Positions 6,588 through 38,709 of a DNA stretch of 64,000 bases are shown here, piece by piece. The DNA is from Burkholderiales bacterium (GTDB lineage Bacteria > Pseudomonadota > Gammaproteobacteria > Burkholderiales > Burkholderiaceae_C). The translations under genes and the position numbers were made by a program. Numbering within the stretch: the first letter of the stretch is position 1; each line of letters begins with the position of its first letter. The notes under the pieces are model-generated. The model saw nothing but the letters and a program-made list of their open reading frames with translations. It searched no databases and was not told the DNA's origin. The stretch is from contig JACPUE010000066.1 of NCBI GenBank assembly GCA_016192425.1, positions 99,306-163,305 of the forward strand. Reading direction: 5' to 3'.

Positions 6588-6623
6588 CGGTGGACAGGCG
6601 CATTTCACGGCACACTGGACACC

Positions 6624-7448: not shown

Positions 7449-7477
7449 GGGCCAGCGCGCCCTCGCAAGGATTTCCC

Positions 7478-8254: not shown

Positions 8255-8287
8255 AGGTTTTTGAACAAATTGGCCTCTGGGGCCCGT

Positions 8288-8326
8288 CAATAAAGCGTAA
8301 GCAGCTATCAAAATAATAGCAATTGC
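8288..8326 (+). repeat. AT-rich palindromic motif copy (intergenic)
   Basis: CAATAAAGCGTAAGCAGCTATCAAAATAATAGCAATTGC. Confidence 0.7.
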
Positions 8327-8353
8327 ATCATCAGGCACACGCCCGGCACTTCC

Positions 8354-8836
8354 ATGACCAAATCCGCCACCGCCCCGCAGCCGTTCGAGCCCGAGTTCAT
8401 CGCCGGACTCAAGGCGATTTTTGAAGAGCGCATCCTGTTCAATCAGATGCTGGGCCTGAAGATCGAGCGCCTGGAGCCCGAGCTGGTGGTGGGCCGCATC
8501 GACATGAAGCCCGATCTGGTGGGGCACTTTGCGTACAACCGCCTCCACGGCGGCGTCATCAGCGCCGGGCTGGACGCCATGGGCGGGCTGGCGGTGATGG
8601 CCGCCATCGGTGCCCGCCACATGGACGAAGAGCCCCTGCAGCGCCTGCACCGCTTTGCCAAGCTGGGCACCATAGACTTGCGCATCGACTACCTGCGCCC
8701 CGGCATCGGCAGCCATTTCGAACTGCGCGCCGAGGTGCTGCGCCTGGGCTCGCGCGTGGCCACCACGCGCATGGAGTTTTTGGGTGCCGACGGCAAACTG
8801 CTGTCTTCGGGCGCGGCGGCGTACATCGTGTCCTGA
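8354..8836 (+). CDS. PaaI-family hotdog thioesterase
   Basis: 160 aa. The …HGGVISAGLDAMGGLAV… stretch is typical of 4HBT/PaaI. Confidence 0.6.
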   Translation: MTKSATAPQPFEPEFIAGLKAIFEERILFNQMLGLKIERLEPELVVGRIDMKPDLVGHFAYNRLHGGVISAGLDAMGGLAVMAAIGARHMDEEPLQRLHRFAKLGTIDLRIDYLRPGIGSHFELRAEVLRLGSRVATTRMEFLGADGKLLSSGAAAYIVS

Positions 8837-23084: not shown

Positions 23085-23345
23085 ATGAACAAACTTCTCG
23101 CTGCCCTGGTTGCTGGTTTTTTTGCTGTGACCTCGTTCGCTCAAACCCCTGCACCGGCGGCCGCTCCTGCAGCACCTGCAGCCGCAACGGCGCCAGCCGC
23201 AGCGCCCGCAGCCGCCAAGGAAGAGGCCAAGGCCGCTCCTGCTGCAACCGAGAAGGCCCCCGCTGCCGCAGCAACCAAGAAAGCAGCCAAGAAAACGCAC
23301 AAGACCAAGAAGGCCCGCGCTGCTGACACCAAGCCTGCACAGTAA
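23085..23345 (+). CDS. small secreted Ala/Pro/Lys-rich low-complexity protein
   Basis: RBS plus signal peptide. Followed by a strong terminator hairpin. Confidence 0.55.
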   Translation: MNKLLAALVAGFFAVTSFAQTPAPAAAPAAPAAATAPAAAPAAAKEEAKAAPAATEKAPAAAATKKAAKKTHKTKKARAADTKPAQ

Positions 23346-23395
23346 GGGCATCCCCCGTACCCTGGGAATCCACTGCCCAGGGACGTGCCCCCAAA

Positions 23396-23430
23396 ACAAA
23401 GAGCCCGCAATGCGGGCTCTTTGTTTTGGG
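23396..23430. terminator. bidirectional rho-independent terminator
   Basis: AAAGAGCCCGC-AAT-GCGGGCTCTTT followed by a T-run on the plus strand and an A-run on the minus strand. Confidence 0.7.
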
Positions 23431-23447
23431 GGCAACGCCGTGGCTGT

Positions 23448-24368
23448 TCAGGCTGTAGGCAAGAAACCCTCAACCGACAGATAGCGTTCGCCCGTGTCGT
23501 AGTTGAAGCCCAGCACCTTGGCGCCTGCCGGCAGTTCGGGTAGCTTCTGTGCAATGGCGGCCAGCGTGGCACCGGACGAAATGCCCACCAGCAGCCCCTC
23601 TTCGCGCGCGGCGCGGCGGGCGTATTCGCGGGCGGGTTCGGCATCGACCTGGATCACGCCATCAAGCAGGCTGGTGTCCAGGTTCTTGGGGATGAACCCC
23701 GCACCCAGGCCCTGAAGCGGGTGCGGTGCAGGTTGGCCGCCCGAGATCACGGGCGAGAGTGCAGGCTCCACCGCAAACACCTTGAGCTGCGGGAACCGCG
23801 CCTTGAGCACGCGCGCGCAGCCCGTCAAATGGCCGCCCGTGCCCACGCCGGTGATAAGTGCGTCCAGCCCGTCGGGAAAGTCGGCCAGGATTTCCTGCGC
23901 CGTGGTGCGCACGTGCACGTCGATGTTGGCGGGGTTCTCGAATTGCTGCGGAATCCAGGCGCCGGGCGTCTGGGCCTTGAGTTCTTCTGCACGCGCAATG
24001 GCCCCCTTCATGCCCTTTTCGCGTGGAGTCAGGTCAAACTGCGCGCCGTAGGCCAGCATCAGGCGGCGGCGCTCAATGCTCATGCTGTCGGGCATCACCA
24101 GGATCAGCTTGTAGCCCTTGACGGCGGCCACCAGCGCCAGACCGATGCCGGTATTGCCGCTGGTGGGCTCAATGATGGTGCCGCCGGGCTGCAGCGCGCC
24201 CGACTTCTCGGCGTCTTCCACCATGGACAGCGCAATGCGATCCTTGATCGAGCCGCCGGGGTTGCTGCGCTCGGACTTCACCCAAACGTTGGCGCCCGCG
24301 CCAAACAGGCGGTTGATGCGGATGTGCGGCGTATTGCCGATGGTTTGCAAAACGTTTTCAACTCTCAT
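23448..24368 (-). CDS. cysK: cysteine synthase A (O-acetylserine sulfhydrylase)
   Basis: PLP-enzyme motifs …[19 protein letters not shown]… and …GISSGA…. Confidence 0.9.
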
Positions 24369-24460
24369 GGCGTCTCCTGTAAAGCCAAAGAAAAACCGTG
24401 GTGTGCATTCTGAACCAGTTGTTCTGCCGTGCGGGCCATATGGATATGCCTGCAGGGCCA

Positions 24461-25552
24461 TCAACCATGCGGCAGCACCTCTACCCGCAAGGCCCGCTCC
24501 ACCGGTGTGATCTGCACCTGCACGGGCAGCCCGAGTGCAATGGTCTGCGCATTGGTCTGCGTGTGCGGCGTGGCCTCGGTGCAGGTGTAGCTGGCGGCCC
24601 GGCCGCTGCGCCACACCGCCAGGGCCAGCGGAAGCATCCACTGGTCGGCCAGGTGCGGGCCCAGTGCGCCTTGGCTGCGCTGGTAGGCGTGCACCTCATT
24701 CGCCAGCCGCTTGGCCACCTGCTCGGCCGACAGGCTGCGTTCGCCCAATTGGCAGAAGACTTCGGTGATGTGGGCGTGTTCCAGTGTAGCGATCAGTGCA
24801 TTGCCCGGTCCTTCGTTTTGGCGTGTCGGCGGTTGGCGCAACTGGCCTGCCTCGCACGTCCAGCCCATGCGCTGGCCCAGCGTTTCCAGCTCACGCGGAA
24901 CAATGCTGCGCGCCAGGCCGGGTGCCACGGCTTCGCACCAGGCGTTTTGCAGCGGGCCGCGTTCCATCACATCCACAGGGGCCAGCGGCTGCGCGGTGGA
25001 TAAGGGGGGCGTGATGTGCGCCACCAGCTCGCCACCCCCTGCAGGGAAGAAGCCGCGCCGCAGCAGTTGCAACTCCAGCCCCACGCCCAGCCGCCGCACC
25101 AGCGGGGCAAAGGCGCGCTCCAGAAAATCAAACGGCGGTGCCATCGGGTTGTGCGTGCCACCCAGCAACTGCACGCGGCTCTCGCCATCGGCCAGCATCA
25201 GCGCAGGCAGCACGGTCTGCAGAACCAGCAGGCAACTGCCCGCCGTGGCAATCTGAAAGCGGTAGTCCCCGCCCCGCACCGTGCCAGGCGTGAACTGCAG
25301 CGCTTGCGAGTTCAGCTCAGCGCCATCAGCCTGCCCGCCACACACGGCCGCCGCTGCCTGTACGCAGGCCAGGTGCTGCCGCATCAGCCCTGGCTTGGGC
25401 CGTCCGGCGCGGATGCGCGTAATGTGCAACGGCCGCCCGGTGACCATGGACAGGGCCAGGCCCGTGCGCAGGATCTGGCCGCCGCCTTCGCCGGTAGAGC
25501 CGTCGAGGGTGAGGGGGAGCATGTTGTGAGAGGGGGAAAGTGTCAGGTTCAT
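24461..25552 (-). CDS. rtcA: RNA 3'-terminal phosphate cyclase
   Basis: Aligns with E. coli RtcA (…[24 protein letters not shown]…RAGRPKPGL…). The start overlaps the upstream stop codon (TGATG). An alternative start 30 nt downstream is possible. Confidence 0.9.
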
Positions 25553-27378
25553 CAGCTCATGTAAAAAACGTCGCCATGGGGCGTGAAGGGCAAACGCCGT
25601 CCAGGAGCCAGCAGGTAGGCGTGCGGACGGCGCACGCTCAGGTGGTCGCAGTCGGCGTCGGTAATGATCAGCAGGGGGCCGTCCTTCGGAAAGTTCGTGC
25701 TGGTTTCCAGCAGTGTGATGGCAGGCTGCAGCATCGTGCCGCCACGGCCTTTGATTTCTACGCGGTGCGCGATGTCTTGCGCAAGCAGGTAGCCCAGGTC
25801 GTAGGGCGCCGCATCGCAGCACACCACGCGCACGGCGGGCACTTCCTTGGCCTCGGCATAGCTGGCGATGCTGCCCAGGGCCTTGGCCAGGGTGTGTTTG
25901 TCCATCGATCCAGAGGTGTCCAGCACCACGCCAAAGGTGCGTCCTTCCAGCCAGCGCGTGTCGGGCCCTGCATACGGGCGTGGAATGTCTGGCGTGGCCG
26001 ACTGGCGGCGGCTCAGCCGCGCATAGGTTCGGCGGGTTTCGATCGGTGGAAAGTGGTGGTCAAACCACCGCGCCAGCTCTACCTCCCACGGAACGGGCGG
26101 CTGCAATAGTGCACGGATTTCTTCCAGCAAGCCCTTGGGCAACAGGCCACGGCCTTGGGTTTCATGCAGCATCAGGCCTTTGCCCAACTGCTCTTTGTAG
26201 AAGGCATCCAAGTCGGTAAAGGGCGCTCGCTCAGTAGAAATCTTTCTGTCCAGCATGTCGCCTTGCCGTCCCGCCAGGGTTAGCAGCTTGCGCATGCGGC
26301 GCAGATCTAACACGATGCGGTCATACACTTCTTCCGCCGACAGGCCGCGCAGGTTCAGGTCGTGCAGTAGCCCCAGCGCAGGGGCGCTGCCCACTTGCAT
26401 CTGGATCAGCCAGTCGTTGATGACGTAGTCGCACGCCACGTTCCACAGATACGGGTCGCGCCCTTGCCGTCGGCCCATGTGCCGCAGTGCTACGTGCAGG
26501 ATTTCGTGTGCCAGCACAAAGCGGGTTTCCTGCTCGGTTAGCCCGGCAGCCGGGTTGAGGTAGATGATGCGCAGGGTTTCGTCCACTGCGCCGACCATGA
26601 TTTCCTCGCAGCGGCACAGTTCGGCGTCTTCCTGAATCTCGAAGGCCGCCACCATGGAACCTAGCAGTGGAAAGCTGCTGATAAACCAGCTGCGGGCACG
26701 CTCCGTCACGCTGCGGGGCATGCTGCGTGTGTCAGTACCCAGGGCTGTACGGGTGCCCGCTGCGATCTCCACCGCCTGTGAGACTGAATTGGCAATGCCT
26801 GCGGCAAACACTTCGCTCCAGCTTTGCTGCGATGACAGGACGCCATGGCGGACAGCAGGGACTGTCTGTTGGAGCCACGCATCTGGGGTTTCCAGGCTGG
26901 TGGCCTTGGGGCCTGCCAGCCCCAGGCCTTCGGCCCAAGTGGGCACGTCGGCTTCGCAGAACTGGCGGTACCAGCGGTCTTCATCCCACGCAGGCGCGTC
27001 GGCAGGCATCTGCATGTCTTGCGGGCATGCGCCGAACTTGACAGACGCCAGAAAGCGCGTGGTCACAACATCGCACGCTGCGCACCATGACGCCCAGTTG
27101 CCCCGGTCACTCTGGAACAGTTCCATGGCGTAGCTAAGTACACCTCGTGCCAACACGAAGGCCCATTCGGGGGCCGTGGCGTGGCGCTTGGGGTGCACAT
27201 GGATGGTGCCGCTCTTGAGCACCACAATCCAGCCTGCAGCAGGGCACTGGGATGCTGCAGTGCGCACCCAGCTTGCGCGCCGTGCCAGCGGGCCGAAGAT
27301 GGGGTGTGCGAGCACCATGGCCATGCCTGCTTCGTAGGCCTGGGTGGCAGGGTTGGTCTTGTGGTGGGGCTTGGCCAT
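25552..27378 (-). CDS. VWA-domain protein with an N-terminal HExxH metallopeptidase-like domain (DUF2201-like; predicted MoxR partner)
   Basis: Carries an HEILHVALRH motif. C-terminal MIDAS motif VVLDTSGSM. 608 aa. Confidence 0.7.
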   Translation of the reverse strand: MAKPHHKTNPATQAYEAGMAMVLAHPIFGPLARRASWVRTAASQCPAAGWIVVLKSGTIHVHPKRHATAPEWAFVLARGVLSYAMELFQSDRGNWASWCAACDVVTTRFLASVKFGACPQDMQMPADAPAWDEDRWYRQFCEADVPTWAEGLGLAGPKATSLETPDAWLQQTVPAVRHGVLSSQQSWSEVFAAGIANSVSQAVEIAAGTRTALGTDTRSMPRSVTERARSWFISSFPLLGSMVAAFEIQEDAELCRCEEIMVGAVDETLRIIYLNPAAGLTEQETRFVLAHEILHVALRHMGRRQGRDPYLWNVACDYVINDWLIQMQVGSAPALGLLHDLNLRGLSAEEVYDRIVLDLRRMRKLLTLAGRQGDMLDRKISTERAPFTDLDAFYKEQLGKGLMLHETQGRGLLPKGLLEEIRALLQPPVPWEVELARWFDHHFPPIETRRTYARLSRRQSATPDIPRPYAGPDTRWLEGRTFGVVLDTSGSMDKHTLAKALGSIASYAEAKEVPAVRVVCCDAAPYDLGYLLAQDIAHRVEIKGRGGTMLQPAITLLETSTNFPKDGPLLIITDADCDHLSVRRPHAYLLAPGRRLPFTPHGDVFYMS

Positions 27379-27385
27379 GATGCAT

Positions 27386-28450
27386 TCAGGTGGTCTTGGC
27401 CTGTCGTTCCACCAGGCGCGGAAGGTCGCGTACCACTTCGATCATGTACCAGGCAGGCAGCGTTTGTCCGGACTCTTCGGCCACGGCAATTTGGGCCATC
27501 TCCAGGCTGATCTGGGCCAAGTCTTTTAACATGGCTTTGGATCGGTGTACCAGTGCCTGTAGCTCGCCGGTGCTCGTGTTCTTGTCCCGCGGCAGGGCCT
27601 TGAGCAGCCGGGCACGAAACGCCTGTGCCAAGAAGTACAGCACGTCGCGGTCCTCGGGTGCGTGGGGCCAGCGGGCATCGCCCTTGAAAATGGCTTCCAG
27701 ACGGTGCCGGTCTGCCGCCAGCTTGCCAAAGGCTTTGAACTGCGCTGCATGCTGGGGCGTGAGGCAGCCATGGGCCATGGCTTCCACCATCGAGGTGGGT
27801 GGCGCGTCGCCAAACGCATGCAGCGCATCGCTGAGCATGTGCCACGAGCGAGGCGTGGAAAACGGTTCCTCATGCTTGGGCGGAGCGCTCCACAGGTGAT
27901 CCGGGCGCTGCTGCAGGTACTCCAGCACCATGGGATGGATGGCGTTGGCCGTGGCCCAGTTCAGCCATTCCGAGGCCGATACCTTCATGTGCACATGCAC
28001 CATGCGGTTCATCAATGCCGACGACATGGGTTTGACGATAGCGGAGTCTTGCGCCCGGTTGCCTGCACCGATCACGATAGAGCCTTCAGGCAGCGTGTAT
28101 TCGCCCACGCGGCGGTCATGAATCAGGCTATAGAAAGCCTTTTGCACATCCTGGGAGCATGCGTTGAGCTCGTCTAGAAAGATGCAGTAAGGCTCCTTGC
28201 GCGCAATCATGGCGGGTGGGCAAAAGCGGCTCACGCCGTCGAGGATCTGGGGCACGCCCATCAGATCCTCAGGGGCCAACTGGCTTCCCAGCAGGGAGAC
28301 ACACTCCAGCCCTACGCTGCGCGCGAACTGCTCTACCAGAGCCGACTTGCCAACGCCTGGAGGGCCCCAGATGAATACGGGGCGGGTGATGGCAACGTTC
28401 AGCAGGAATTCGGTGAGCTGCGAAGGCGAAAGCGCGTGGACGGTTTGCAT
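27386..28450 (-). CDS. MoxR-like AAA+ ATPase
   Basis: Walker A GPPGVGKS. Walker B IFLDELN. Confidence 0.8.
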   Translation of the reverse strand: MQTVHALSPSQLTEFLLNVAITRPVFIWGPPGVGKSALVEQFARSVGLECVSLLGSQLAPEDLMGVPQILDGVSRFCPPAMIARKEPYCIFLDELNACSQDVQKAFYSLIHDRRVGEYTLPEGSIVIGAGNRAQDSAIVKPMSSALMNRMVHVHMKVSASEWLNWATANAIHPMVLEYLQQRPDHLWSAPPKHEEPFSTPRSWHMLSDALHAFGDAPPTSMVEAMAHGCLTPQHAAQFKAFGKLAADRHRLEAIFKGDARWPHAPEDRDVLYFLAQAFRARLLKALPRDKNTSTGELQALVHRSKAMLKDLAQISLEMAQIAVAEESGQTLPAWYMIEVVRDLPRLVERQAKTT

Positions 28451-28481
28451 GATGTTCTTGTCGTTATTTCGGTGAATGTCG

Positions 28482-29312
28482 TCAGCGGTGGTAGCGCAGC
28501 ACAGTGTCGTGCAACAGCGCATCCAGCGTGGCGTGACTGGGTACGGGCAGTGGCTGCACAGGCTCGGCCGCATTGCGGGCCAGCTCGGCTTCGATAAAGG
28601 CATGGATGCCGGACCAGCGGGGGCTGGTGGCAGCCTCGTCGGCGCGCATCTTTATCTCCAGCAGTGCGTTGATCTCATCGACCAGCGCAGCGTCGTGCAC
28701 GGGGTGCAGCGTGTGCTGGGCCAGCTCGGCAAAGCGCATGGGCGGCACGCCGGGTTGCGTGCGGATCCAGCGTGCGGCCAGCAGCGGGCGCAGCACGTAC
28801 AAGTACTTTTTGTAGCGCACCTCGTCAGCTTGCAAATGCTCGCGGAAGTTCTTCTTGGCCATGGCCGCGTAGTGGTGCCAGCCCTTGGCGTTGGAGAACA
28901 CCTGCGCCGCCAGCGTGCGGAACTGCGCCATCGTGTCACCCTCTTCGCGGTACACGATGGGCGAGCCCAGCCATTCGAGCAGCGTGGGGTTGGATTCGCG
29001 CAGCAGCCCCAGCGCCTTGCGCAGGTCCCAACCGTTCACATCCAGGTCCCCACTGATTGGCAGCTCGATCACATCACGCCCCGGCGCAATGGTCAGGTAC
29101 CAGGGCAGCCGGTGCACGTAGATAAAGCGCACGTCGTAGTCGCTGTCGGGTGAGGCAAAGCCCCAGCCCCGGCTGCCAGATTCGCAGGCGAAGAGGACTG
29201 TCACGCCGTGCGTGGACTCGATGCGCTGCAGCTCCTGCATCACCTGTGCGCGCATGTGGGGCTCCACCGGGTGGGAGGAGCGCAGCATTTCCTGTTGGTC
29301 TGTTTTTTGCAT
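28482..29312 (-). CDS. DNA polymerase beta-superfamily nucleotidyltransferase of the RNA-repair-associated family
   Basis: GS…D.D motif (ACESGSRGWGFASPDSDYDVRF). Confidence 0.65.
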   Translation of the reverse strand: MQKTDQQEMLRSSHPVEPHMRAQVMQELQRIESTHGVTVLFACESGSRGWGFASPDSDYDVRFIYVHRLPWYLTIAPGRDVIELPISGDLDVNGWDLRKALGLLRESNPTLLEWLGSPIVYREEGDTMAQFRTLAAQVFSNAKGWHHYAAMAKKNFREHLQADEVRYKKYLYVLRPLLAARWIRTQPGVPPMRFAELAQHTLHPVHDAALVDEINALLEIKMRADEAATSPRWSGIHAFIEAELARNAAEPVQPLPVPSHATLDALLHDTVLRYHR

Positions 29313-29317
29313 AAAAT

Positions 29318-29365
29318 GAGCTGTATCGCTTGTTGGATAAGCGCTTGAAGCTATCAAAAGTGTAG
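29318..29365. repeat. AT-rich motif, inverted pair (intergenic, between rtcB and the nucleotidyltransferase gene)
   Basis: GAGCTGTATCGCTT-GTTGG-ATAAGCGCTTGAAGCTATCAAAAG. Confidence 0.7.
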
Positions 29366-29408
29366 TGAGCCAATAGTGCGGTGCTGTCACCAGCGCCGCA
29401 CAGGGCGG

Positions 29409-30632
<1,224 letters not shown>

Positions 30633-30661
30633 ATCGTTTTTTCGTTCTTTCGTTTTTTTGT

Positions 30662-31402
30662 TCATTGAACCATTCCGCGCGCTGCGGCCTGGGCGTAGGT
30701 TTTCAGTTCATCGTCGTTCTTCACATTCCGGATGAAGGCATCCATGCGTGCCTGCAGTTCACCAGGGCGGTTCAGGTGCACTCCCTCGTGCCCGATCCCA
30801 TGCAACGCCGATACCTGTGCTTCGCGCCAAGGCATGGCCAGCATTGCGCAGAACACCTGCCACATTGCGTCGCGCCATTCGGGGATGTGCTTGGCATTCC
30901 AGAACGTGGGCCACACGTCAAACCACATGTAGCTCACGAAGTACAGCCGATCGCTTCGGCTTCCGATGGTGTTCGGCGCGGTGTCCAGGCGCGGGCCCAG
31001 GCAGTCGCGCCATAAAGTGGGCAGGGCCTGCACCATGCGCATCGCGTCGGCCAGGGGCACGGAAGGGTCGTTCACCATGTGCGGGATGTCTCCCGCGTTG
31101 TTGCTCATCACATGGTTCAGGCCCATGCCGACCTGATCGTCGCTGTAAGGCGCCAGGTCCGTTCCCGCATTGGCGAACAGCACGGTCTGGACGTGCGTCC
31201 ATTGCAGCGGCGTGGCTTCGAACTCCGGCTCGTCGATCAGCCAATACCACTCCTGCCCGCTCTTGTCGGGCACGGGGCGGTCGAACAGGTAGCGCAGGGC
31301 CGCGCTGTAGACCGCTGGATCCAGGCCGACAGATGCGCACGTGGCGGGTGTGGTGTCCCGCTGCAAACGCTTTTCTCTTGCAGTTGGTTTTTTGTTCTTC
31401 AT
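30662..31402 (-). CDS. hypothetical Trp-rich protein; no recognisable family
   Basis: 246-aa ORF directly upstream of rtcB on the same strand. Coding-like codon usage. Confidence 0.5.
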   Translation of the reverse strand: MKNKKPTAREKRLQRDTTPATCASVGLDPAVYSAALRYLFDRPVPDKSGQEWYWLIDEPEFEATPLQWTHVQTVLFANAGTDLAPYSDDQVGMGLNHVMSNNAGDIPHMVNDPSVPLADAMRMVQALPTLWRDCLGPRLDTAPNTIGSRSDRLYFVSYMWFDVWPTFWNAKHIPEWRDAMWQVFCAMLAMPWREAQVSALHGIGHEGVHLNRPGELQARMDAFIRNVKNDDELKTYAQAAARGMVQ

Positions 31403-31429
31403 GGCAGTTCTCTCTGCGTTTGTTTTTGC

Positions 31430-32572
31430 TCAGCGCATTTTCACCAGGCCATTGAGCACCTGATCCAGGCCGCCAAACACCGAGATCTTGTCGATCCGCT
31501 CGGCCACGCGCTCCAGCGTCTCCAGCTCCTTCATACGCAGGGCGACGGGGTTGTCTTCCATCACCTTGGCGGTGTTGAGCAGCGAGCGCGTGGCGGCGGT
31601 TTCCTCGCGGCGGCGGATCACGTTGGCCTCGGCCTGTTTCTGGGCCTGCACCACCTGGGTCAGGATGGTTTTCATCTCGCCGGGCAGCACGATGTCCTTC
31701 ACGCCCACGCTCTCCAGCTGCATGCCATAGGGCTGCAGCTTGGCGGCCATGTGCGCGGTCACCACCTCGTCGATCACCGTCTTGTTCTCCAGCAACTCAT
31801 CAAGCGTGCGGGTGCCCACGGCGGCGCGCAGCGCAAACTGCAGCTCGCGGTAGAGGTGGTCGGCAGGCTTTTGCAATTGGGCAAAGGCGCGCAGCACATC
31901 GGTGTAGCGGTAGGTGGCGCACAGGTTCAGGCGCAGGCTTACCTTGTCGCGGGTCATGATGTCCTGGCCCGATACCTCTACGGCTTGCAGGCGCAGATCC
32001 ACCAGCTCCACGGCGACGGTGCGGCCGTACTTCCAGAAGGCGTAGGTGCCTGCGGTCAGCAGGCGCTCGACCTTGCCGTCCACCGTCAGCAGCGCGCACT
32101 GGCCTTCGGGCACTTGCACCTGCAGCACGCCGGTCAGGCCCGTCACCGCACGCTGGCGCAGTTGGGTTTGGGTCAGGCGCGCCACCAGGTCGGCGGGCAG
32201 TTCGGCGCCCGCTTGCAGGTCCACCACCTGGACGGTCACCTGGACCAGGCCCTTCCAGTACAGGCGGCGGGTGCCAGGGGGCAGGATTTCCACCAGCACA
32301 CCGTTCTCGCTGCGCAGGCCCACTTCGGTTTCCGACAGATTCACCTGCACAAACTCGGCAGCCACTACGGCGGGCTCCTGCGCCATCAGGTACTCGGCCA
32401 GGCCGTGGGTGAAGGCGGGTTGTTCCAGGGCGAAAGTCTCCGCACGCAACTGATCCATGCCTGCAAACAGCCAGTAGGTGCCGCTGTGCAGCACGCGGTC
32501 AAAGCTGCCATTGCGCAGCAGCAGGGCGCGTTCGTTCTTTTTCACCGTGGTGCGTTGGAACAACTTCAGCAT
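31430..32572 (-). CDS. SPFH/Band-7 (stomatin-like) domain protein with a long N-terminal extension
   Basis: C-terminal SPFH signature …GVKDIVLPGEMKTILTQVVQAQKQAEANVIRRREETAATRSL…. Confidence 0.7.
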   Translation of the reverse strand: MLKLFQRTTVKKNERALLLRNGSFDRVLHSGTYWLFAGMDQLRAETFALEQPAFTHGLAEYLMAQEPAVVAAEFVQVNLSETEVGLRSENGVLVEILPPGTRRLYWKGLVQVTVQVVDLQAGAELPADLVARLTQTQLRQRAVTGLTGVLQVQVPEGQCALLTVDGKVERLLTAGTYAFWKYGRTVAVELVDLRLQAVEVSGQDIMTRDKVSLRLNLCATYRYTDVLRAFAQLQKPADHLYRELQFALRAAVGTRTLDELLENKTVIDEVVTAHMAAKLQPYGMQLESVGVKDIVLPGEMKTILTQVVQAQKQAEANVIRRREETAATRSLLNTAKVMEDNPVALRMKELETLERVAERIDKISVFGGLDQVLNGLVKMR

Positions 32573-32786
32573 TTTGTTTTCCTCTTTCTTCTTCGTTGTC
32601 GTATCGGGTTGCCGTTACAGCGATGGCGAGGTGCCAGGGGGCGCAGCCAGGGCCCTGCAGTGCGCCGTGGTTGCTGCCCCAATCCCCAGCGGGAAGGGCG
32701 GCAGCGTGGCTGGCTGCGGGTGCAGGCTGTGCCGGGTGCTGGCACAAACCGCCACCGGCTGACGGGGCGGGGCCTTGCGGCGGCGT

Positions 32787-32822
32787 CCAAAAAAACGCAA
32801 CCCTGGGGCCGCTCCCCGCGTT
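32787..32822 (-). terminator. rho-independent terminator / attenuator between the ncRNA and the rtc operon
   Basis: On the minus strand: AACGC-GGGGAGCGGCCCC-…GCGTT followed by TTTTTTT. Confidence 0.55.
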
Positions 32823-33125
32823 CGGCGGGTGGTCTTTCGACCGGTACTTCCAATCAAGGTCTTGCGACCGTGGGCAGGAATCGAACCTGCGACAGACCCC
32901 TTGCGGGGGTTGCTCTACCAGACTGAGCTACCAGTGGTGACACGCCTGGAGTCGCACCGGGCACGTCCTTTCGGAGTGGCTACTGCAGCCGTGCCGTTAT
33001 CCAGCGCTTGCGGTGTGCGGCATGCAGGGCATCGACAGGGACCGAAGGCCCCGGACTTCCGGCACCGGCGGGGCGGACTTCTGTCCCAACCCCGGCCTGT
33101 GAGCGGTCACCGCTTGCGCTGGATG
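32823..33125 (-). ncRNA. Y-RNA (YrlA)-like non-coding RNA containing a tRNA-like module, transcribed from a sigma-54 promoter
   Basis: No credible ORF. GC-rich and highly structured. Contains a canonical D-arm and T-arm (see the 32868–32945 feature). Confidence 0.4.
32868..32945 (-). other. tRNA-like module (canonical D-arm and T-arm, non-canonical anticodon region, imperfect acceptor pairing)
   Basis: Minus-strand read: …CCACTGG-TA-GCTC-AGTCTGGTA-GAGC-A-ACCCCCGCAAGGGGT-CTGTC-GCAGG-TTCGATT-CCTGC-CCACGGT…. Confidence 0.5.
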
Positions 33126-33136
33126 CCTTGTCTATT

Positions 33137-33152
33137 GCCAGATGCGTGCCAG
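33137..33152 (-). promoter_or_regulatory. sigma-54 (-24/-12) promoter
   Basis: Minus-strand sequence TGGCACGCATCTGGCA versus consensus TGGCACG-N4-TTGCA; only one mismatch in the -12 element. Confidence 0.6.
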
Positions 33153-33281
33153 GTGGGTAGCCAGGGTGCCGCGAACTCATAACTTGTTGATTTGTATTGA
33201 TAAAAATCTGAATGCGCGGATGTTTTAGTTCATGGGTTATGAAAATACTAGAATTAAAGCTAAATAAATAGATTGATTTCC

Positions 33282-34910
33282 ATGCGCAAAAACAAGGTGG
33301 TGATCGGCTTTCTGGGCACGCAGCTCGACTCCGGCCGGGGCGCGGGGCGGTGGGAGAAGTGGCGCCCCACCGTGTCGCTGGTGCAGCACGAAGACGTGGT
33401 GATCGATCGGCTGGAGCTGCTCTACACCCTTGCGCACCAAGACCTGGCCCAGCTCGTGCAGGCCGACATGGCCATTGCCTCGCCCGAGACCACGGTGAAC
33501 CTGGTGCCCATGCCCATTGCCGACCCGTGGGACTTTGGCGAGGTGTATGCGCAGCTCTTTGATTGGACGCAGGCCTACCGCTTCGACACCGAGCGCGAGG
33601 AGTACTGGACGCACATCACCACCGGTACGCACGTGGCGCAGATCTGCCTGTTCTTGCTGGTGGAGTCGCGCCGCATTCCGGGCGTGCTGGCGCAGACTTC
33701 GCCCCCGAAGCGCCAGCAGGCGGGCGACCCCGGCAGCATTGCGCTGATCGACCTGGACCTCTCGCGCTACGACGTGATTGCCCAGCGCTTTGGTGCAGAG
33801 CAGCGCGATGCGGTGCAGTTCTTGAAAAGCGGCATCGCCACGCGCAATGCGCGCTTCAACGCCCTGATCGACGAGGTGGAGCGCGTGGCCGTGCGCTCGC
33901 GCGCACCCATCCTGTTCACCGGGCCAACGGGTGCGGGCAAGTCGCACCTGGCGCGGCGCATGTTTGAACTGAAGAAAGCCCGCCACCAGGTGGCAGGCGA
34001 ATTCGTCGAAGTGAACTGCGCCACGCTGCGCGGCGACGGCGCGGCATCCACCCTGTTCGGCCACAAGAAGGGCGCCTTTACGGGTGCGGCGGCCGACCGG
34101 CCCGGCCTGCTGCGTGCGGCGCACCAGGGCGTGCTGTTCCTCGACGAAATAGGCGAGCTGGGCCTGGACGAGCAGGCCATGCTGCTCAAGGCCGTGGAAG
34201 AAAAGCGCTTTTACCCCATGGGCAGTGACCGTGAGGTGGAGAGCGACTTCCAGCTGGTAGCAGGCACCAACCGCGACCTGCGCACCGAAGTCGCGGCCGG
34301 GCGCTTTCGCGAAGACCTGTTTGCGCGCATCAACCTATGGAGCTATGTGCTGCCCGGCCTGGCGCAGCGGCCCGAAGACATTGAGCCGAATGTGGACTAT
34401 CTGCTCACGCGCGTCGCCGCCGAGCTGGGCGGCGCGGTGCGATTCACCAAAGAAGCCAAGGCCGCGTACCTGCGCTTTGCCACGGGCCCCGAGGCCCTGT
34501 GGAGCGGCAACTTTCGCGACCTGGCCGCCAGTGTGACCCGGCTGGCCACGCTGGCAGAAGCAGGCCGCATTGGCGAATCGCTGGTGCAGGCCGAAGTGGC
34601 ACGGCTGCGCTGGCTATGGCAGCCGCAGGGCGCGGGGGCAGCCGCTGCACCCGATGGCGAAGCGGCGCTGCAGGCCTTGGTGGGTGCCGCTGCGTGGGAT
34701 GCCATGGACCTGTTTGACCGCCTGCAACTGCAGGCCGTGGCCGGGGTGTGCCAGCGTGCGCGCAGCCTGTCGGATGCCGGGCGGGTGCTGTTCCAGGCCT
34801 CGCGCACGCAGCGCTCCGTGGTCAACGATGCAGACCGGCTGCGCAAGTACCTGGCGCGGTTTGGGCTGACGTGGGAGCAGGTGGCGCAGTCGATGGCCAC
34901 GGCCGAGTGA
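33282..34910 (+). CDS. rtcR: sigma-54-dependent transcriptional regulator RtcR (CARF–AAA+–HTH)
   Basis: Collinear with E. coli RtcR from MRKNKVVIGFLGT… through …NDADRLRKYLARFGLTWEQV. Carries a GAFTGA motif. Confidence 0.9.
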   Translation: MRKNKVVIGFLGTQLDSGRGAGRWEKWRPTVSLVQHEDVVIDRLELLYTLAHQDLAQLVQADMAIASPETTVNLVPMPIADPWDFGEVYAQLFDWTQAYRFDTEREEYWTHITTGTHVAQICLFLLVESRRIPGVLAQTSPPKRQQAGDPGSIALIDLDLSRYDVIAQRFGAEQRDAVQFLKSGIATRNARFNALIDEVERVAVRSRAPILFTGPTGAGKSHLARRMFELKKARHQVAGEFVEVNCATLRGDGAASTLFGHKKGAFTGAAADRPGLLRAAHQGVLFLDEIGELGLDEQAMLLKAVEEKRFYPMGSDREVESDFQLVAGTNRDLRTEVAAGRFREDLFARINLWSYVLPGLAQRPEDIEPNVDYLLTRVAAELGGAVRFTKEAKAAYLRFATGPEALWSGNFRDLAASVTRLATLAEAGRIGESLVQAEVARLRWLWQPQGAGAAAAPDGEAALQALVGAAAWDAMDLFDRLQLQAVAGVCQRARSLSDAGRVLFQASRTQRSVVNDADRLRKYLARFGLTWEQVAQSMATAE

Positions 34911-35290
34911 GGGAGAGTTGACGAGCGGGGCGGATTTTCGTTAGTATCGCGCCCCTTTTCCATTCTTCCCGACGCCTTTTGAACCGGTGCTCGCGGCGCA
35001 GTCCCCCCCTTTGTTGAATGCGGGTGCGGGCAGCGCAGGGAGGTGTTTGATGCTGAACTTCTTCGCAATCACTGTTTGAAGCCGCGCGCCGGCCACCACT
35101 ACGCCAAGTGTCTTTGCACCGCCCCCACGTGCCATGACGGGAGGGGCTGCTTGCCAGGAGTCTTGACGCAAGTGGCCTGCCATCGCCACCGCAGGCCCCC
35201 TTTGGGAGTGCGCCAGTGGCCGACCAAGAGACGTAGCCGGGCTTCGTGCCGAGCAATGCCCGCGATCCATTCGCGCTGAAGGCCCTGGGG

Positions 35291-35306
35291 TGGCCTGGCT
35301 GATGCA
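35291..35306 (+). promoter_or_regulatory. candidate sigma-54 promoter upstream of the RNA ligase gene
   Basis: TGGCCTGGCTGATGCA has GG and GC at the correct -24/-12 spacing. It lies ~60 bp upstream of the 35369 start. Confidence 0.35.
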
Positions 35307-35368
35307 CGCATGCGTGCGTTAGTGGCATGGCTTGTGATCGAGTCATCCCTGCAAGAAAGGAGTGCATC

Positions 35369-36325
35369 ATGACGACGCGCTCAATCGAACACGTGGCGGC
35401 AATGCACTCGTTGCCGCTGCTGCGCTACCCGCGCACGCCCCATCTGGAGGGCTCGCGTCACCAAAGCGGTGATGCGCCCGATGTACAGCCGCTGGCCCCG
35501 TTGGTGGGACAGCATGCAGTCATCGAGGAAAAAATGGATGGTGCCAACTGTGCGCTGTCGTTCACCGAAGGGGGCGAGCTGTGCCTGCAGTCGCGCGGGC
35601 ACTACCTCACGGGTGGCGCGCGAGAGCGGCAGTTTGCGGCGCTGCACCCTTGGGCACGCGTGCACGAAGCGGCTTTGCTGGCCTGCCTGCAAGACCGCTA
35701 CGTGCTGTATGGCGAGTGGATGTTCGCCAAGCACGCCATGTTTTACGACCGGCTGCCGCACTACCTGCTCGAATTTGACGTGTGGGATCGCGTGGAGCAG
35801 TGCTTTCTGTCCACACCACGGCGCCATGCGTTGCTGGCAGGTTTGCCGGTGGTGTCGGTGCCTGTGGTGTATGAGGGGGCAATGCCTGCACGGGCGGAGT
35901 GGCTGTGGTCGTTGGTGGGGGCTTCGCTGGCGCGCACGCCGCATTGGAACCAGACGCTGGACGATACCGTGCAGCGTCTGCAGTTGCCGCTGGATTTGTG
36001 CCGACAGCAAAGCGATCCGTCGTCACTGGCTGAAGGGCTGTATGTGAAGCTGGAGGATACGCACCAGGTGCTGGCACGGTTCAAGCTCGTGCGCTGGGAC
36101 TTTGTGCAACACATTCTGGATTCGGGCTCGCACCACAGCGAACGGCCCGTGGTACCCAATGCGCTGGCAGCGGGGGTGAACCTGTATGCCCCTACGCTGA
36201 ACGTGCAATGGGCGGACATGGGGCTGCACCGCGTGCTGGGGCTGGAGGCGCTGCAAGCGCACCATGCCCAGTGGGCCGCGGTGCAGCGCACACAGAAAGG
36301 AGGTGCCCTATGGCGCCGCAAATGA
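35369..36325 (+). CDS. ATP-dependent RNA ligase (Rnl family)
   Basis: Nucleotidyltransferase motif I (EEKMDGANCAL). N-terminal YPRTPHL. RBS AAAGGAG. Confidence 0.75.
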   Translation: MTTRSIEHVAAMHSLPLLRYPRTPHLEGSRHQSGDAPDVQPLAPLVGQHAVIEEKMDGANCALSFTEGGELCLQSRGHYLTGGARERQFAALHPWARVHEAALLACLQDRYVLYGEWMFAKHAMFYDRLPHYLLEFDVWDRVEQCFLSTPRRHALLAGLPVVSVPVVYEGAMPARAEWLWSLVGASLARTPHWNQTLDDTVQRLQLPLDLCRQQSDPSSLAEGLYVKLEDTHQVLARFKLVRWDFVQHILDSGSHHSERPVVPNALAAGVNLYAPTLNVQWADMGLHRVLGLEALQAHHAQWAAVQRTQKGGALWRRK

Positions 36326-37500
36326 TGGAGGCAGCGCCGTATGCGGTGCTGCGGGGGCTGGTGCCGGCCCCTCACCAGCTACTGGACTGGGCCGCGTGCT
36401 GCGAGGCTATCGGTGCGCTACGCGCACTAGATACGACGCCGCAGGATCCGGTGCACCATGCCGAAGGAAATGTGGGAACGCACACGCGCTGGGTGCTGGA
36501 GTGCCTGCGCGAGGATGCCTACTTTCAGCAGGCCGCGTCCGATCGGCAGTGGGTGATGTTCATGGCGGCTTTGCTGCACGACATTGCCAAGCCTGCCACC
36601 ACGGTGGTGGACGAGGCCACGGGGCGCATTCGCCAGCCGGGGCATTCCAGCCGTGGGGCAGTGGATGCCCGCGTGCTGCTGTGGGTGGCTGGATGCCCGT
36701 GGGCGCTACGTGAGGCGGTATGCCGCTTGATTGCGGTGCACCAGCAGCCGTTCTTTGTGTGGCACTCGCACCAAGGCGTTGCGCCCGAGTATGTGGTGCG
36801 CAAGCTGTCGTGGGGGGTGTGCTGGGCTGAGTTGCTGGCACTGGTACGGGCCGACATGCGCGGGCGTATTTGCCAGGATCAGCAGCGCCATCTGGACGAC
36901 CTGCAACTGCTGGAAGAGCTGGTGCGCGAAGAAGGCGCGTGGGAGCGGCCTCGCCCCTTTGCAGACGCGCATACCGCGCTGCGTTACTTCAGGGGTACCA
37001 ACCTGTACCCCATGGAGCCGCTGTATGCCAGCCCTGGCTCGACCGTGACGGTGATGTGCGGCCTGCCAGCGGCGGGCAAAAACCACTGGGTGGCCAGGCA
37101 CCGACCGCATTGGGCGGTAGTGTCGTTTGACGACGTGCGCGAGGCATTGGGCCTGGCGCATGGCGACAACGAGGGGCAGGTAGCGCACCACGCACAGGAG
37201 CAGGCGCGCGCCTTGCTGCGGGCGCGGCAGCCGTTTGTGTGGAATGCGACACACCTGTCGCAGTCCATGCGCGACAAGACGCTGGATCTGCTGTATGCCT
37301 ACGATGCGCAGGTCGAGATCGTGCACCTGGAGCAGCCGCTGCCCGAACTGCTGCGGCGCAACCACCGGCGCGACACCACGCTGACCAACGCGGCCCTGCT
37401 GCGCATGCTGCACCGCTGGGAGGCCCCGTGGCCGACCGAGGCGCATCGCGTGGTATACGAGGGAGGCAATACAGCGCCAGCGGGAAATCGCGTACGGTAA
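36310..37500 (+). CDS. HD-domain phosphoesterase fused to a P-loop polynucleotide kinase (HD-Pnk-like end-healing enzyme)
   Basis: HD motifs (…HHAEGNVGTHT…LLHDIAKP…). Walker A GLPAAGKN in the C-terminal half. Overlaps the ligase stop codon. Confidence 0.7.
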   Translation: MAPQMMEAAPYAVLRGLVPAPHQLLDWAACCEAIGALRALDTTPQDPVHHAEGNVGTHTRWVLECLREDAYFQQAASDRQWVMFMAALLHDIAKPATTVVDEATGRIRQPGHSSRGAVDARVLLWVAGCPWALREAVCRLIAVHQQPFFVWHSHQGVAPEYVVRKLSWGVCWAELLALVRADMRGRICQDQQRHLDDLQLLEELVREEGAWERPRPFADAHTALRYFRGTNLYPMEPLYASPGSTVTVMCGLPAAGKNHWVARHRPHWAVVSFDDVREALGLAHGDNEGQVAHHAQEQARALLRARQPFVWNATHLSQSMRDKTLDLLYAYDAQVEIVHLEQPLPELLRRNHRRDTTLTNAALLRMLHRWEAPWPTEAHRVVYEGGNTAPAGNRVR

Positions 37501-37512
37501 CCCCAGCCGTTC

Positions 37513-38124
37513 TCAGGGCTTGCGCGCCGTCAGCAAGAACAAGGGGTACTCCCGCCCATTGCGTTGCTGCACGCGCAGGATTTCGGTAAACGCCACGCCT
37601 TGCAGGCCTGCGTGCTCGGCCAGGGCCTGCAGGGCCTGGGGGGCAAAACCGAAGTGGTGTACGCCCTTGGCTTCGTTGTCGCCGTGGAAGCTCCCGTCTT
37701 CTTCGTACAGGTCGACCAGGGCCACGCGCCCGCCGGGGTGCAGGGCATCGGCAAAGGCCTGCATCAATGCCGCGGTGTCGGCCACATGGTGCAGGGCCAT
37801 GCAGCTGACGATGGCGTGGTAGCGCACAGGCAGGCCCTCAAAAATGTCGCCCTGGTGCGGTGTGATGTTGGCATGGCCCTTGTCGGCCAGCACCTGCAGC
37901 ATGGCGCCAGACATGTCCAGCGCCGTGACCTGCGCCACCAGCGGCGCAATCTGCGTGGATAGCAGGCCGGTGCCCGCGCCAAAGTCCAGCACCTGGTCGG
38001 TGGGGGCCAGGGGCAAATGCGCCAGCAGGCGCGGCGGTACGGCGGCCAGTTGCTGGGACATGGGGCGCTGGTCCCAGTCGCGGGCTGCGGCGTCGAAATG
38101 GGTGGGGGTGGGTGCTGCGGTCAT
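37513..38124 (-). CDS. class I SAM-dependent methyltransferase
   Basis: Motif I VLDFGAGTG. Confidence 0.7.
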   Translation of the reverse strand: MTAAPTPTHFDAAARDWDQRPMSQQLAAVPPRLLAHLPLAPTDQVLDFGAGTGLLSTQIAPLVAQVTALDMSGAMLQVLADKGHANITPHQGDIFEGLPVRYHAIVSCMALHHVADTAALMQAFADALHPGGRVALVDLYEEDGSFHGDNEAKGVHHFGFAPQALQALAEHAGLQGVAFTEILRVQQRNGREYPLFLLTARKP

Positions 38125-38181
38125 GGCGCAAGTATGTGCCAGGTGGCTTGGCCTGTTGCGCTCTGGGATAATCATGCCCGT

Positions 38182-38644
38182 GAAGCACGCCAGACCGCCG
38201 CTGGTGCAATCTGGGAAACCAGGCACTGGAGGAACGTCCGGACTGCACAGGACAGCGTAGCAGCTAACGGCTGCCCACCGTGAGGTGAGGATCAGAGCAA
38301 CAGAGACGAGTCCGAGCGTGGATGTGCCCATCGGGTGTTCTGCGGTTCGCCAGCGCAAGCTGGCGCGGCTGGCGCAAGCCAGACGGTGACGGGCGAAAGC
38401 CCGGCACGACGCAGCCACCCCGGGTGCGAAGCGCCCGGGGTGAAACGGGCAATCTCTACGCGCAGCAATACCAAGTAGGCCAGCCACGGGAGCAGGGCGA
38501 CCTCTCTCGACCTTGTGGATCCGCAGGGAGAGCTGGCGGGTAGGTAGCACCGAGCCGGGTGGGCGACCCCCGGCCCAGAGTAATGGCGGTCACGCTGCGG
38601 GCAACCGCAGTGCACAGAATCCGGCTTATCGGCGCGCTTCACAC
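38182..38644 (+). ncRNA. rnpB: RNase P RNA (bacterial type A)
   Basis: P4/universal elements are present: GGAGGAACGTCCGGAC…, GGGGTGAAACGGG…, ACAGAATCCGGCTTATCGG. A P1 helix pairs GAAGCACGCC with GGCGCGCTTC. Confidence 0.8.
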
Positions 38645-38664
38645 TTTACAAGCAAAAAATGGCT

Positions 38665-38709
38665 CCAACGCTTATGGAATAAGCGCTGGCAGCTATCATT
38701 TTTGAAATT
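38665..38709. repeat. AT-rich motif, inverted pair (intergenic, just 3' of rnpB)
   Basis: CCAACGCTTAT-GG-AATAAGCGCTGGCAGCTATCATTTTTG. Confidence 0.7.

Follow-up and report, generated by a model that had tools for sequence, protein, structure and literature searches.

Several bacterial and phage gene arrangements that resemble the locus studied here have been described. In some bacteria, RtcB is encoded beside a Band-7 protein and a predicted tRNA associated with band 7 (b7a-tRNA), as mentioned in the YrlA paper (bioRxiv 10.1101/312249, citing Burroughs & Aravind 2016); the same text reported the b7a-tRNA as not validated experimentally as of 2018. The order rtcB-rlaP-rtcA with RtcR was reported in P. 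fluorescens and P. aeruginosa (2025 preprint), and RlaP was reported to extend damaged 3' ends of RNA by one or two nucleotides (2025 preprint). The rtc locus of P. aeruginosa encloses an SPFH gene, PaFlo8 (2026 paper). RNA fragments with a cyclic phosphate were proposed as the ligand of RtcR, according to a paper citing Hughes et al. 2020 and to the abstract of PMC10159003. In Runella slithyformis, an RNA ligase open reading frame (ORF) overlaps the HD-Pnk ORF (Munir & Shuman 2017, as excerpted in PMC6097658). A jumbo-phage pair of MoxR and a metallopeptidase-vWA protein was called 'previously unrecognized' and assigned to virion assembly (PMC7824862); the authors' laboratory is the one that surveyed RNA-repair systems. 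Here, an rtc locus was analysed at positions 24461-37500 of a 64-kb stretch of DNA from a Burkholderiales bacterium (contig JACPUE010000066.1), and this whole stretch is referred to as the window. The locus contains the gene of the activator RtcR, a divergent minus-strand gene group from an SPFH/Band-7 gene to rtcA, and a plus-strand pair of genes for an ATP-dependent RNA ligase (rnl) and HD-Pnk.

The sequence, structural, and neighbourhood analyses suggest that the genes on the minus strand are a single RNA-repair operon that depends on RtcR and sigma-54 and belongs to the 'Band-7 plus tRNA-like RNA' class, and that it has recruited a MoxR/peptidase-vWA pair; the Rnl/HD-Pnk genes would be separate from it. 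This reading is considered reasonably probable. The original prediction, which was made from the sequence without database searches, had described an RtcR-centred RNA-repair locus of an architecture not yet described. The first part holds. The second holds only for the MoxR/vWA pair and a 246-amino-acid (246-aa) protein, which were not found in the literature searched, whereas the core (Band-7 with tRNA-like RNA, rtcB-rlaP-rtcA, and SPFH) has been described. The locus was also rightly placed among the conflict-associated RNA-repair systems predicted by comparative genomics.

All ten predicted ORFs were found by ORF listing and translation, in the expected places and order. Families were assigned by Pfam and NCBIfam profile searches of the ORF translations. 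These searches back every domain call that had been made, including those of MoxR (AAA_5), VWA (PF13203 and PF09967), and the nucleotidyltransferase (PF10127). RtcR is a CARF-containing sigma-54 activator, as had been predicted: the NF038308 equivalog spans residues 6-539, PF06956 and PF00158 also match, and the protein matches the PADLOC model RtcR--CARF_AAA_HTH (E 3e-256). It was the sole component matched among the locus proteins by the PADLOC defence-system models. In RtcB, the metal-ligand and nucleophile motifs GVDLGCG, GNHF, HSGSR, HHNY, and SHGAGR are readable in the translation. The catalytic residues are intact in both RtcB and RtcA, as judged from the motifs in translation and from the RtcA equivalog score above its cut-off. 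RlaP matches PF10127 with 311 bits over profile positions 1-249, contains the GS...DxD motif, and is encoded adjacent to rtcB. The other catalytic motifs of the locus proteins, including the ligase KxDG, the HD motif, and the kinase P-loop, are also intact. The distance from rtcB to rtcA is 3.9 kb. The G+C content of the region's window is 62-70%.

The minus-strand genes look like one tightly packed transcription unit, as had been proposed from the TGATG stop/start overlap of the vWA and rtcA genes. This overlap and an ATGA overlap between the 246-aa ORF and rtcB were read directly in the sequence. The other gaps are 7-31 nt, and the gap between rtcB and rlaP is 18-96 nt, depending on the rlaP start codon. 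A sequence scan of 23300-38700 found no sigma-70-like or intergenic terminator-like site inside the operon. The identical gene order is found in Acidovorax sp. Leaf76, A. soli, and two metagenome-assembled genomes (MAGs); A. kalamii and Hydrogenophaga have the same order minus the 246-aa gene.

A predicted sigma-54 promoter and a tRNA-like leader RNA, both absent from the original prediction, were identified ahead of the operon. The promoter (TGGCACGCATCTGGCA) is the sole match to TGGCACN5TNGCA in the 64-kb window, and it sits in the 700-nt spacer between rtcR and the SPFH gene. The match alone could be due to chance, as 36 of 100 shuffles contained at least one. Its -24 GG and -12 GC are invariant, at the same position, in seven Comamonadaceae loci (the window and six others). 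Transcription would start near 33125, given the standard -12 spacing. RtcR-binding repeats were not found between the promoter and rtcR.

The leader of ~550 nt, from the putative start to the SPFH ATG, is conserved across these seven loci. The MAFFT alignment of the spacers showed a mean column identity of 69% overall, with long invariant runs. In the 5' structured domain, RNAalifold predicted 46 pairs from the seven loci, and 14 of them carry compensatory double changes. Two tandem tRNA-like modules follow, and the covariation support for these predicted structures is strong. The outer stem of module A is 5 bp long; the module also contains two short hairpins and a T-arm whose canonical T-loop is of the UUCGACU type. 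Module B has an anticodon arm that is capped by a GNRA-type loop; all four stem pairs covary, and the loop varies (GCAA, GAAA, GAAAA). The tandem structure is 94.8% paired in the unfitted MAFFT alignment, with 10 pairs changed on both sides (slid controls, 36-47%). In a nine-sequence alignment that was fitted to the covariance model and so leans toward the model, pairing is 99% (slid controls, 38-46%), and 15 of the 34 pairs differ on both sides. This covariance model (R1) finds the tandem in nine loci, upstream of Band-7. The matches beyond the first seven loci are in Acidovorax sp. 62 (140 bits) and in Caldimonas, upstream of Band-7 (45 bits).

Module B is probably the 'Band-7-associated tRNA'. 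It matches the Rfam tRNA model with 37 bits (gathering threshold, 29). It appears to be a tRNA mimic and not a tRNA gene, because ARAGORN found no tRNA in the orthologous Comamonadaceae loci and because the real tRNAs of the Caldimonas locus (L169) score 46-65 bits with the same model. No other Rfam family matches the leader, and this includes the Y-RNA family. A reading of the leader as a small-protein gene was ruled out: the leader appears non-coding because its indels are not multiples of three, and its conservation is not 3-periodic. Two further observations concern the RNA. The window carries a U-rich insertion (GUUUUUUUGGAC) at 32797-32812 (-), inside an otherwise conserved leader hairpin. 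This insertion makes a terminator-like site and is missing from the six orthologous leaders. At 6614-8549 of the Caldimonas locus, some ten genes that score as tRNAs (46-65 bits) precede HNH, a tRNA-like element, Band-7, the 246-aa gene, and RtcB, so that the tRNA array lies directly beside the RtcB module; neither RtcR nor RtcA is found nearby.

The SPFH gene is the first gene of the operon that also holds rtcB, and the SPFH proteins of the Comamonadaceae operons share 85-96% identity. The original prediction had taken this protein as a membrane scaffold. That description is unsupported, because the protein has no hydrophobic or transmembrane segment and no N-terminal membrane anchor; the highest Kyte-Doolittle 19-residue mean is 0.97. 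The 246-aa protein had no match in any profile library searched. It has 251 homologues, and all of those with an organism name are from Burkholderiales. The gene lies directly upstream of rtcB in the contexts examined, namely Variovorax, Caldimonas, and four Acidovorax-type operons. The Variovorax order is RtcR, Ro60, 246-aa protein, RtcB, zinc-finger protein, RlaP, and RtcA; in Caldimonas, the protein occurs with Band-7. The 246-aa protein may be a partner of RtcB. Its presence in an rtc operon was not found in the accessible literature.

The recruited pair consists of an AAA+ ATPase and a 608-aa peptidase-vWA protein. The ATPase contains Walker A (GPPGVGKS) and Walker B (FLDE) motifs, and its homologues are named 'MoxR family ATPase' by PGAP. 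Its match to the subfamily model bpMoxR is below the cut-off of that model. Its closest solved relative is the AAA domain of Midasin (E 1e-13). The 608-aa protein consists of an inactive peptidase duplicate, an HExxH minigluzincin-like peptidase, and a vWA/MIDAS domain. The HExxH (AHEILH) and MIDAS (DTSGS) motifs, with residues H291, E292, H295, D487, S489, and S491, are invariant in 16 homologues. Residues 22-140 align with residues 233-355 by hhalign (probability 96.8%, E 3e-10), and the N-terminal copy has ARGVLS in place of AHEILH. Profile search matched the HExxH region to the minigluzincin MJ1213. In the AlphaFold2 model (predicted confidence, pLDDT, of 80), the C-terminal domain has a vWA fold, and Foldseek matched it to integrin I-domains and the MIDAS domain of MDN1/Rea1. 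The nearest match of the 608-aa protein is a Burkholderiales MAG protein with 100% identity, and the nearest named relatives are from Acidovorax (84%). A phage family that matches the protein, phrog_1314 (E 6e-46), is labelled 'HNH endonuclease', which looks like a mis-annotation.

Full-length homologues of the 608-aa protein form a family of ~600 aa in many phyla. The loci of homologues from 80 species were fetched and scored by tblastn with the proteins of the window. The ATPase gene was detected in 77 of them; in every locus whose contig reaches far enough upstream, the vWA gene directly follows it. MoxR and peptidase-vWA thus appear to be a fixed, mobile two-gene cassette. RtcB or rtc genes are found within 10 kb of the pair in 14 of the 80 species. 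The same linkage was found outside this set, in one Planctomycetota genome (RtcB-MoxR-vWA, L002) and in one viral contig (L091). The chance of one RtcB gene lying within 20 kb in a ~5 Mb genome was roughly estimated as ~0.4%, and the linkage is therefore far above chance. At least five different RtcB-linked arrangements are present across Pseudomonadota, Bacillota, and Planctomycetota. Several of the linked loci lack RtcR, so the pair is linked to RtcB rather than to RtcR. The full order of the window is found in four Acidovorax-type loci among the 80 species. Ro60-type operons with the pair are present in Nitrosospira and in a Pseudomonadota MAG, where the order is RtcB-Fic-PIN-MoxR-vWA-RlaP-RtcA, and the order in Lautropia is SPFH-RtcB-MoxR-vWA. 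RtcB, SPFH, or Ro genes lie nearby or in convergent orientation in Paenibacillus, Gorillibacterium, and Ammoniphilus.

In an unsupervised clustering of the flanking ORFs, no neighbour families other than RtcB, SPFH, RlaP, and RtcA recurred across taxa. Among viral contigs, one of four with long-form relatives has RtcB immediately downstream, and none of 76 with short-form DUF2201/MoxR relatives (~25% identity) has adjoining RNA-repair genes. The RtcB link is specific to the long form, because the short-form phage pairs are not beside RNA-repair genes. A link between MoxR/vWA (DUF2201) and RtcB was not found in the literature searched, which is weak negative evidence, and the linkage is probably undescribed so far. 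The operon also exists without the pair. Acidovorax sp. 62 shares the operon, its leader, and its flanks, with cysK, RtcA, RlaP, RtcB, a 166-aa ORF, and Band-7 on one strand and RtcR, Rnl, and HD-Pnk on the other. Comparison of its rlaP-rtcA junction with the window revealed no clean insertion scar; the junctions are remodelled.

Three other features were noted around the pairs. In an Ro60-type RtcR operon (L006/L014, 6268-8436), a Fic gene and an 85-aa/PIN (VapBC-like) pair lie between rtcB and moxR; rtc operons are taken to accept conflict genes because of this insertion. Small ORFs of 69-97 aa follow the pair on two plasmids (L252, 8900-9193; L253, 8864-9151) and in the Planctomycetota genome (L002, 11921-12130). 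These pairs are either stand-alone or RtcB-linked, and the ORF may be a third component. In Paenibacillus sinensis (L041), the Rfam family BsrG, a type I toxin RNA, matches at 12008-12253 (68 bits; gathering score, 55), between the vWA gene and the convergent RtcB gene.

Several points weigh against the proposed operon and the role of the pair in it. About 80% of the pairs (~64 of 80 species) are not near RNA-repair genes, and some of them are plasmid-borne, with integrase or HNH genes alongside, or occur in phage-like contigs; the plasmid pairs are annotated merely as 'MoxR family ATPase' and 'peptidase/VWA-like'. The pair can clearly work without an adjacent RtcB, because most pairs are placed in this way. 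The MoxR-vWA association may already be listed by Burroughs & Aravind 2016. No terminator-like site was found between the rtcA stop and the cysK start, ~92 nt downstream (24368-24461), and the operon transcript may run on from rtcA into cysK. Where transcription starts, how far the operon extends, and whether the leader is processed are all inferred. The covariation is drawn from nine fairly close relatives, with one alignment fitted to the model, and only 9 of 73 predicted pairs covary in the 3' part of the leader (covariation term, ~0). As for the downstream flank, the first strong hairpin (23 bp; 23387-23434) comes only after cysK, and the rtcA-cysK order recurs in Acidovorax Leaf76 and Acidovorax sp. 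62.

Table 1. Features of the rtc locus and its neighbouring cassette, with positions in the window.
Feature	Position	Strand	Basis
RtcA (RNA 3'-phosphate cyclase)	24461..25552	-	PF01137 E 1e-73; NF003246 384 bits, cut-off 352
608-aa peptidase-vWA protein	25552..27378	-	PF13203 E 6e-21, 75.6 bits; PF09967 28 bits, cut-off 26.4
MoxR-type AAA+ ATPase (AAA_5)	27386..28450	-	AAA_5 E 2e-13; likely start MQTVHAL
RlaP Pol-beta nucleotidyltransferase	28482..29312	-	PF10127 E 7e-93; ORF open to 29390, start codon uncertain
RtcB 3'-phosphate/5'-OH RNA ligase	29409..30665	-	PF01139 E 9e-129
246-aa Trp-rich HEAT/ARM-like repeat protein	30662..31402	-	no family match; 10 Trp
SPFH/Band-7 protein, 380 aa, predicted soluble	31430..32572	-	PF01145 E 1e-31
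Leader 3' part	32573..32865	-	sequence very highly conserved, structure uncertain
tRNA-like module B: D-arm, T-arm, 3-bp acceptor	32866..32938	-	ARAGORN 'tRNA-Cys'(GCA)
tRNA-like module A: mini-cloverleaf	32939..32995	-	helices 1-4 of tested structure 96-100% paired, compensatory changes
Leader 5' structured domain: closing stem around multi-branched fold	32999..33124	-	RNAalifold
Predicted sigma-54 promoter TGGCAC-N5-TGGCA (TGGCACGCATCTGGCA)	33136..33151	-	ahead of repair operon, divergent from rtcR
RtcR (CARF, sigma-54 AAA+, HTH activator), divergent	33282..34910	+	NF038308 821 bits, cut-off 650
Sigma-70-like promoter TTGACG-18-TAGTAT of rnl/HD-pnk	34918..34947	+	only promoter-like site in 23300-38700
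9-codon upstream ORF (uORF) MLNFFAITV, GGGAGG ribosome-binding site	35050..35079	+	within rnl leader
ATP-dependent RNA ligase (rnl), KxDG motif	35369..36325	+	PF09414 E 2e-32
HD-Pnk (HD phosphoesterase + P-loop 5'-kinase fusion)	36310..37500	+	PF13671 E 1e-19, 71.6 bits

The Rnl/HD-Pnk genes appear to be a separate, known cassette with its own expression signals. The rnl gene had been described as immediately downstream of rtcR; it actually starts 458 nt past the rtcR stop. The HD-Pnk ORF is open from 36208 and overlaps the rnl ORF. The HD domain match of HD-Pnk (18.9 bits) is below the Pfam cut-off of 22; H..HD and GxxxxGK are invariant in 14 HD-Pnk homologues, and PF01966 is recorded for many homologues. 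A sequence search of the solved structures in the PDB with Rnl and HD-Pnk gave no matches. Homologues are common in Burkholderiales. In all those of 80 metagenome loci whose sequence allows it, Rnl comes before HD-Pnk, and it is directly upstream in 74 loci. In 78 other loci the pair stands alone; divergent RtcB-like genes are nearby in two of the 80. No true RtcR adjoins the cassette in these 80 loci; the partial 'RtcR' matches there (36-38%) are taken to be generic sigma-54 activators. In a Variovorax locus (L171), the pair lies between unrelated genes, away from any true RtcR. Conversely, the four Comamonadaceae rtc loci that extend at least 2 kb past rtcR (L005, L008, L012, and L013) have no Rnl/HD-Pnk beside it. 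The rtcR-rnl-HD-pnk adjacency was found elsewhere only in Acidovorax sp. 62.

The -35 and -10 elements of the rnl promoter are conserved in Acidovorax sp. 62 (L170) and in a further locus (L172), as is the ~420-nt rnl leader (34950-35368). The uORF has equivalents in both loci (MHTFFIAC in L170 and MLNFVAITF in L172). The cassette appears to bring its own expression signals, because the promoter, leader, and uORF are conserved where the upstream sequence differs, as in L172. No Rfam family matches the rnl leader. The uORF could be an attenuator or a translation-stress sensor for the cassette. The class A RNase P RNA gene rnpB was found just past HD-Pnk, both in the window (38182-38644 (+), 165 bits) and in L170 (11193-11532, 209 bits), and a long spurious minus-strand ORF (37513-38550) overlaps it in the window. 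It was not seen in the fetched flanks of nine other Rnl/HD-Pnk loci, and its position is probably local synteny.

A possible mechanism can be outlined for the repair operon. RNA damage would produce fragments with a 2',3'-cyclic phosphate, and these would activate the CARF domain of RtcR, as established for the Salmonella RtcR. Activated RtcR would then fire the sigma-54 promoter. The leader with its two tRNA mimics would probably be processed to a stable RNA, which, together with a soluble SPFH oligomer, might serve as scaffold or cofactor. The HEAT-like 246-aa protein might partner RtcB. RtcA would cyclise or normalise the ends, RlaP would refill trimmed 3' ends by one or two nucleotides, and RtcB would seal them. 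The chemistry of RtcB and RtcA, the activity of RlaP, and end healing by HD-Pnk are established from other work, and the sequence itself shows the gene content, the coupling, the promoter motif, the RNA structure, and the recurrent linkage. The MoxR/peptidase-vWA pair might be an ATP-driven remodeller, like a split miniature Midasin. Its MIDAS domain might grip a protein on a damaged ribonucleoprotein (the ribosome, a bound toxin, or RtcB itself), and the pair might detach and perhaps cleave this protein, so that the RNA ends become accessible. Another possible role is the activation of RtcB. Rnl/HD-Pnk would provide a self-contained 5'-phosphate/3'-OH healing-and-sealing pathway, which is beside rtcR only in this Acidovorax sub-lineage. 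A more specific version of this mechanism, in which the long-form pair is a dedicated RtcB cofactor (a split 'mini-Midasin') that frees damaged ribosomes or tRNA complexes of proteins by stripping or cleavage, or else activates RtcB, and in which the leader RNA nucleates a soluble SPFH cage in a Ro60/Y-RNA-like particle, is tentative and somewhat unlikely.

Other explanations of the locus were considered. The MoxR/peptidase-vWA pair might be an independent mobile conflict or chaperone cassette that landed in insertion-tolerant rtc operons, has no role in RNA repair, and at most borrows the damage-responsive expression of RtcR, in the way that other defence systems use RtcR-like regulators. The stand-alone pairs in ~64 of the 80 species, and those on plasmids by integrase/HNH genes and in viral contigs, agree with such a cassette, as does an Ro60-type rtc operon that took up Fic and a PIN toxin in that same position. 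Moreover, superoperons of defence genes that begin with an RtcR homologue are reported (paper citing Hughes et al. 2020), and the operon of Acidovorax sp. 62 would function without the pair. However, the common neighbour is RtcB and not RtcR, and Planctomycetota, Bacillota, and a viral contig contain linked pairs without RtcR. At least five arrangements of the linkage arose, and no other gene family recurs beside the pair across taxa. PADLOC has no match for the pair, which also seems to be translationally coupled to rtcA in the window. A mobile cassette without a repair role is thus considered unlikely.

The original prediction had placed two repair chemistries under one activator, so that RtcR would control both the RtcB/RtcA and the Rnl/HD-Pnk pathways in one integrated island. 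Both units act on broken RNA ends, the rtcR-rnl-HD-pnk adjacency recurs in Acidovorax sp. 62, and read-through from rtcR is possible. Against such an island stand the 458-nt spacer, whose conserved sigma-70-like promoter and uORF leader travel with the cassette, and the absence of a second sigma-54 site from the 64-kb window. The autonomous loci, the Variovorax and metagenome cassettes away from a true RtcR, and the four rtcR loci that lack the cassette also disagree with it. Co-regulation of Rnl/HD-Pnk by RtcR is not supported by these comparisons, and an integrated island is quite improbable. For the leader, module B might be an ordinary tRNA-Cys gene, with DNA regulatory sites accounting for the surrounding conservation. 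The ARAGORN call and the Rfam score above the gathering threshold (37 vs 29 bits) favour a tRNA gene. However, the acceptor stem has only three pairs, and a GNRA-type cap forms the 'anticodon' loop; the stem of this cap covaries, the cap's sequence differs among orthologues, and ARAGORN rejects the orthologous copies. The score is also far below that of the real L169 tRNAs, and the element lies inside the sigma-54-driven leader on the operon strand. The compensatory changes argue for an RNA structure, and an ordinary tRNA gene is hardly credible. The reading of one RtcR-dependent repair operon with a recruited pair is preferred over these explanations.

The substrates and cofactors of bacterial RtcB are still poorly defined. 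Culturable Acidovorax strains offer a contrast with and without the pair: Leaf76 and A. soli carry MoxR/vWA, whereas Acidovorax sp. 62 has the same leader RNA without the pair. This contrast bears on whether an AAA+/MIDAS/peptidase system aids ligation, on the role of the tRNA mimics, and on SPFH as a soluble RNA-associated scaffold. If true, the link between MoxR-vWA and RNA repair would parallel the eukaryotic Midasin, which acts on ribosomal particles.

Compared with the known systems, the locus resembles the E. coli rtcR/rtcBA in its divergent RtcR (CARF, AAA+, HTH), its sigma-54 promoter, and the presence of RtcB and RtcA in one operon. However, it adds five genes and the leader RNA, and its rtcB and rtcA are far apart. 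Like the Salmonella rsr-yrlBA-rtcBA, it has a predicted RtcR-controlled operon in which a scaffold gene and a non-coding RNA that mimics tRNA lie upstream of rtcB. Both the 246-aa protein and the MoxR pair are found in Ro60-type operons as well. The scaffold of the locus is SPFH/Band-7 instead of Ro60, the RNA precedes the scaffold gene, and there is no Rfam Y-RNA match. The cassette resembles that of Runella slithyformis, where the ATP-dependent ligase ORF also overlaps the start of the HD-phosphoesterase/5'-kinase fusion. It differs in having no adjacent Tpt1 or methyltransferase-HIT, in its position between rtcR and rnpB, and in its uORF leader.

The MoxR/peptidase-vWA pair resembles other MoxR-vWA pairs, Midasin, and the phage pair in that an AAA_5 ATPase is found beside a MIDAS vWA protein; like the phage protein, the vWA protein carries a metallopeptidase N-terminal to its vWA domain. 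For the ATPase, the closest solved relative is Midasin, whose MIDAS domain also ranks among the top matches for the vWA domain. Unlike the phage pair (PMC7824862), the long form of the locus has an extra inactive peptidase copy and the RtcB linkage; Midasin/Rea1 differs as a single 5,000-residue chain. The closest systems are the Band-7/b7a-tRNA RtcB systems and the P. aeruginosa SPFH/RlaP rtc locus, which share SPFH, RtcB, RlaP, and RtcA under RtcR. The Pseudomonas reports contain the gene core without a tRNA-like RNA. The Band-7/b7a-tRNA systems also have a tRNA-like RNA beside Band-7, a likeness judged from the accessible descriptions. The accessible descriptions of these systems do not include the second tRNA-like module, the two further conserved leader domains, the HEAT-like 246-aa protein, or the MoxR/peptidase-vWA pair. 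In summary, the backbone of RtcR, SPFH, tRNA-like RNA, RtcB, RlaP, and RtcA is a described class, to which the locus adds a recurrent and apparently undescribed MoxR/peptidase-vWA module, a lineage-specific 246-aa adaptor, and a leader RNA richer than those reported.

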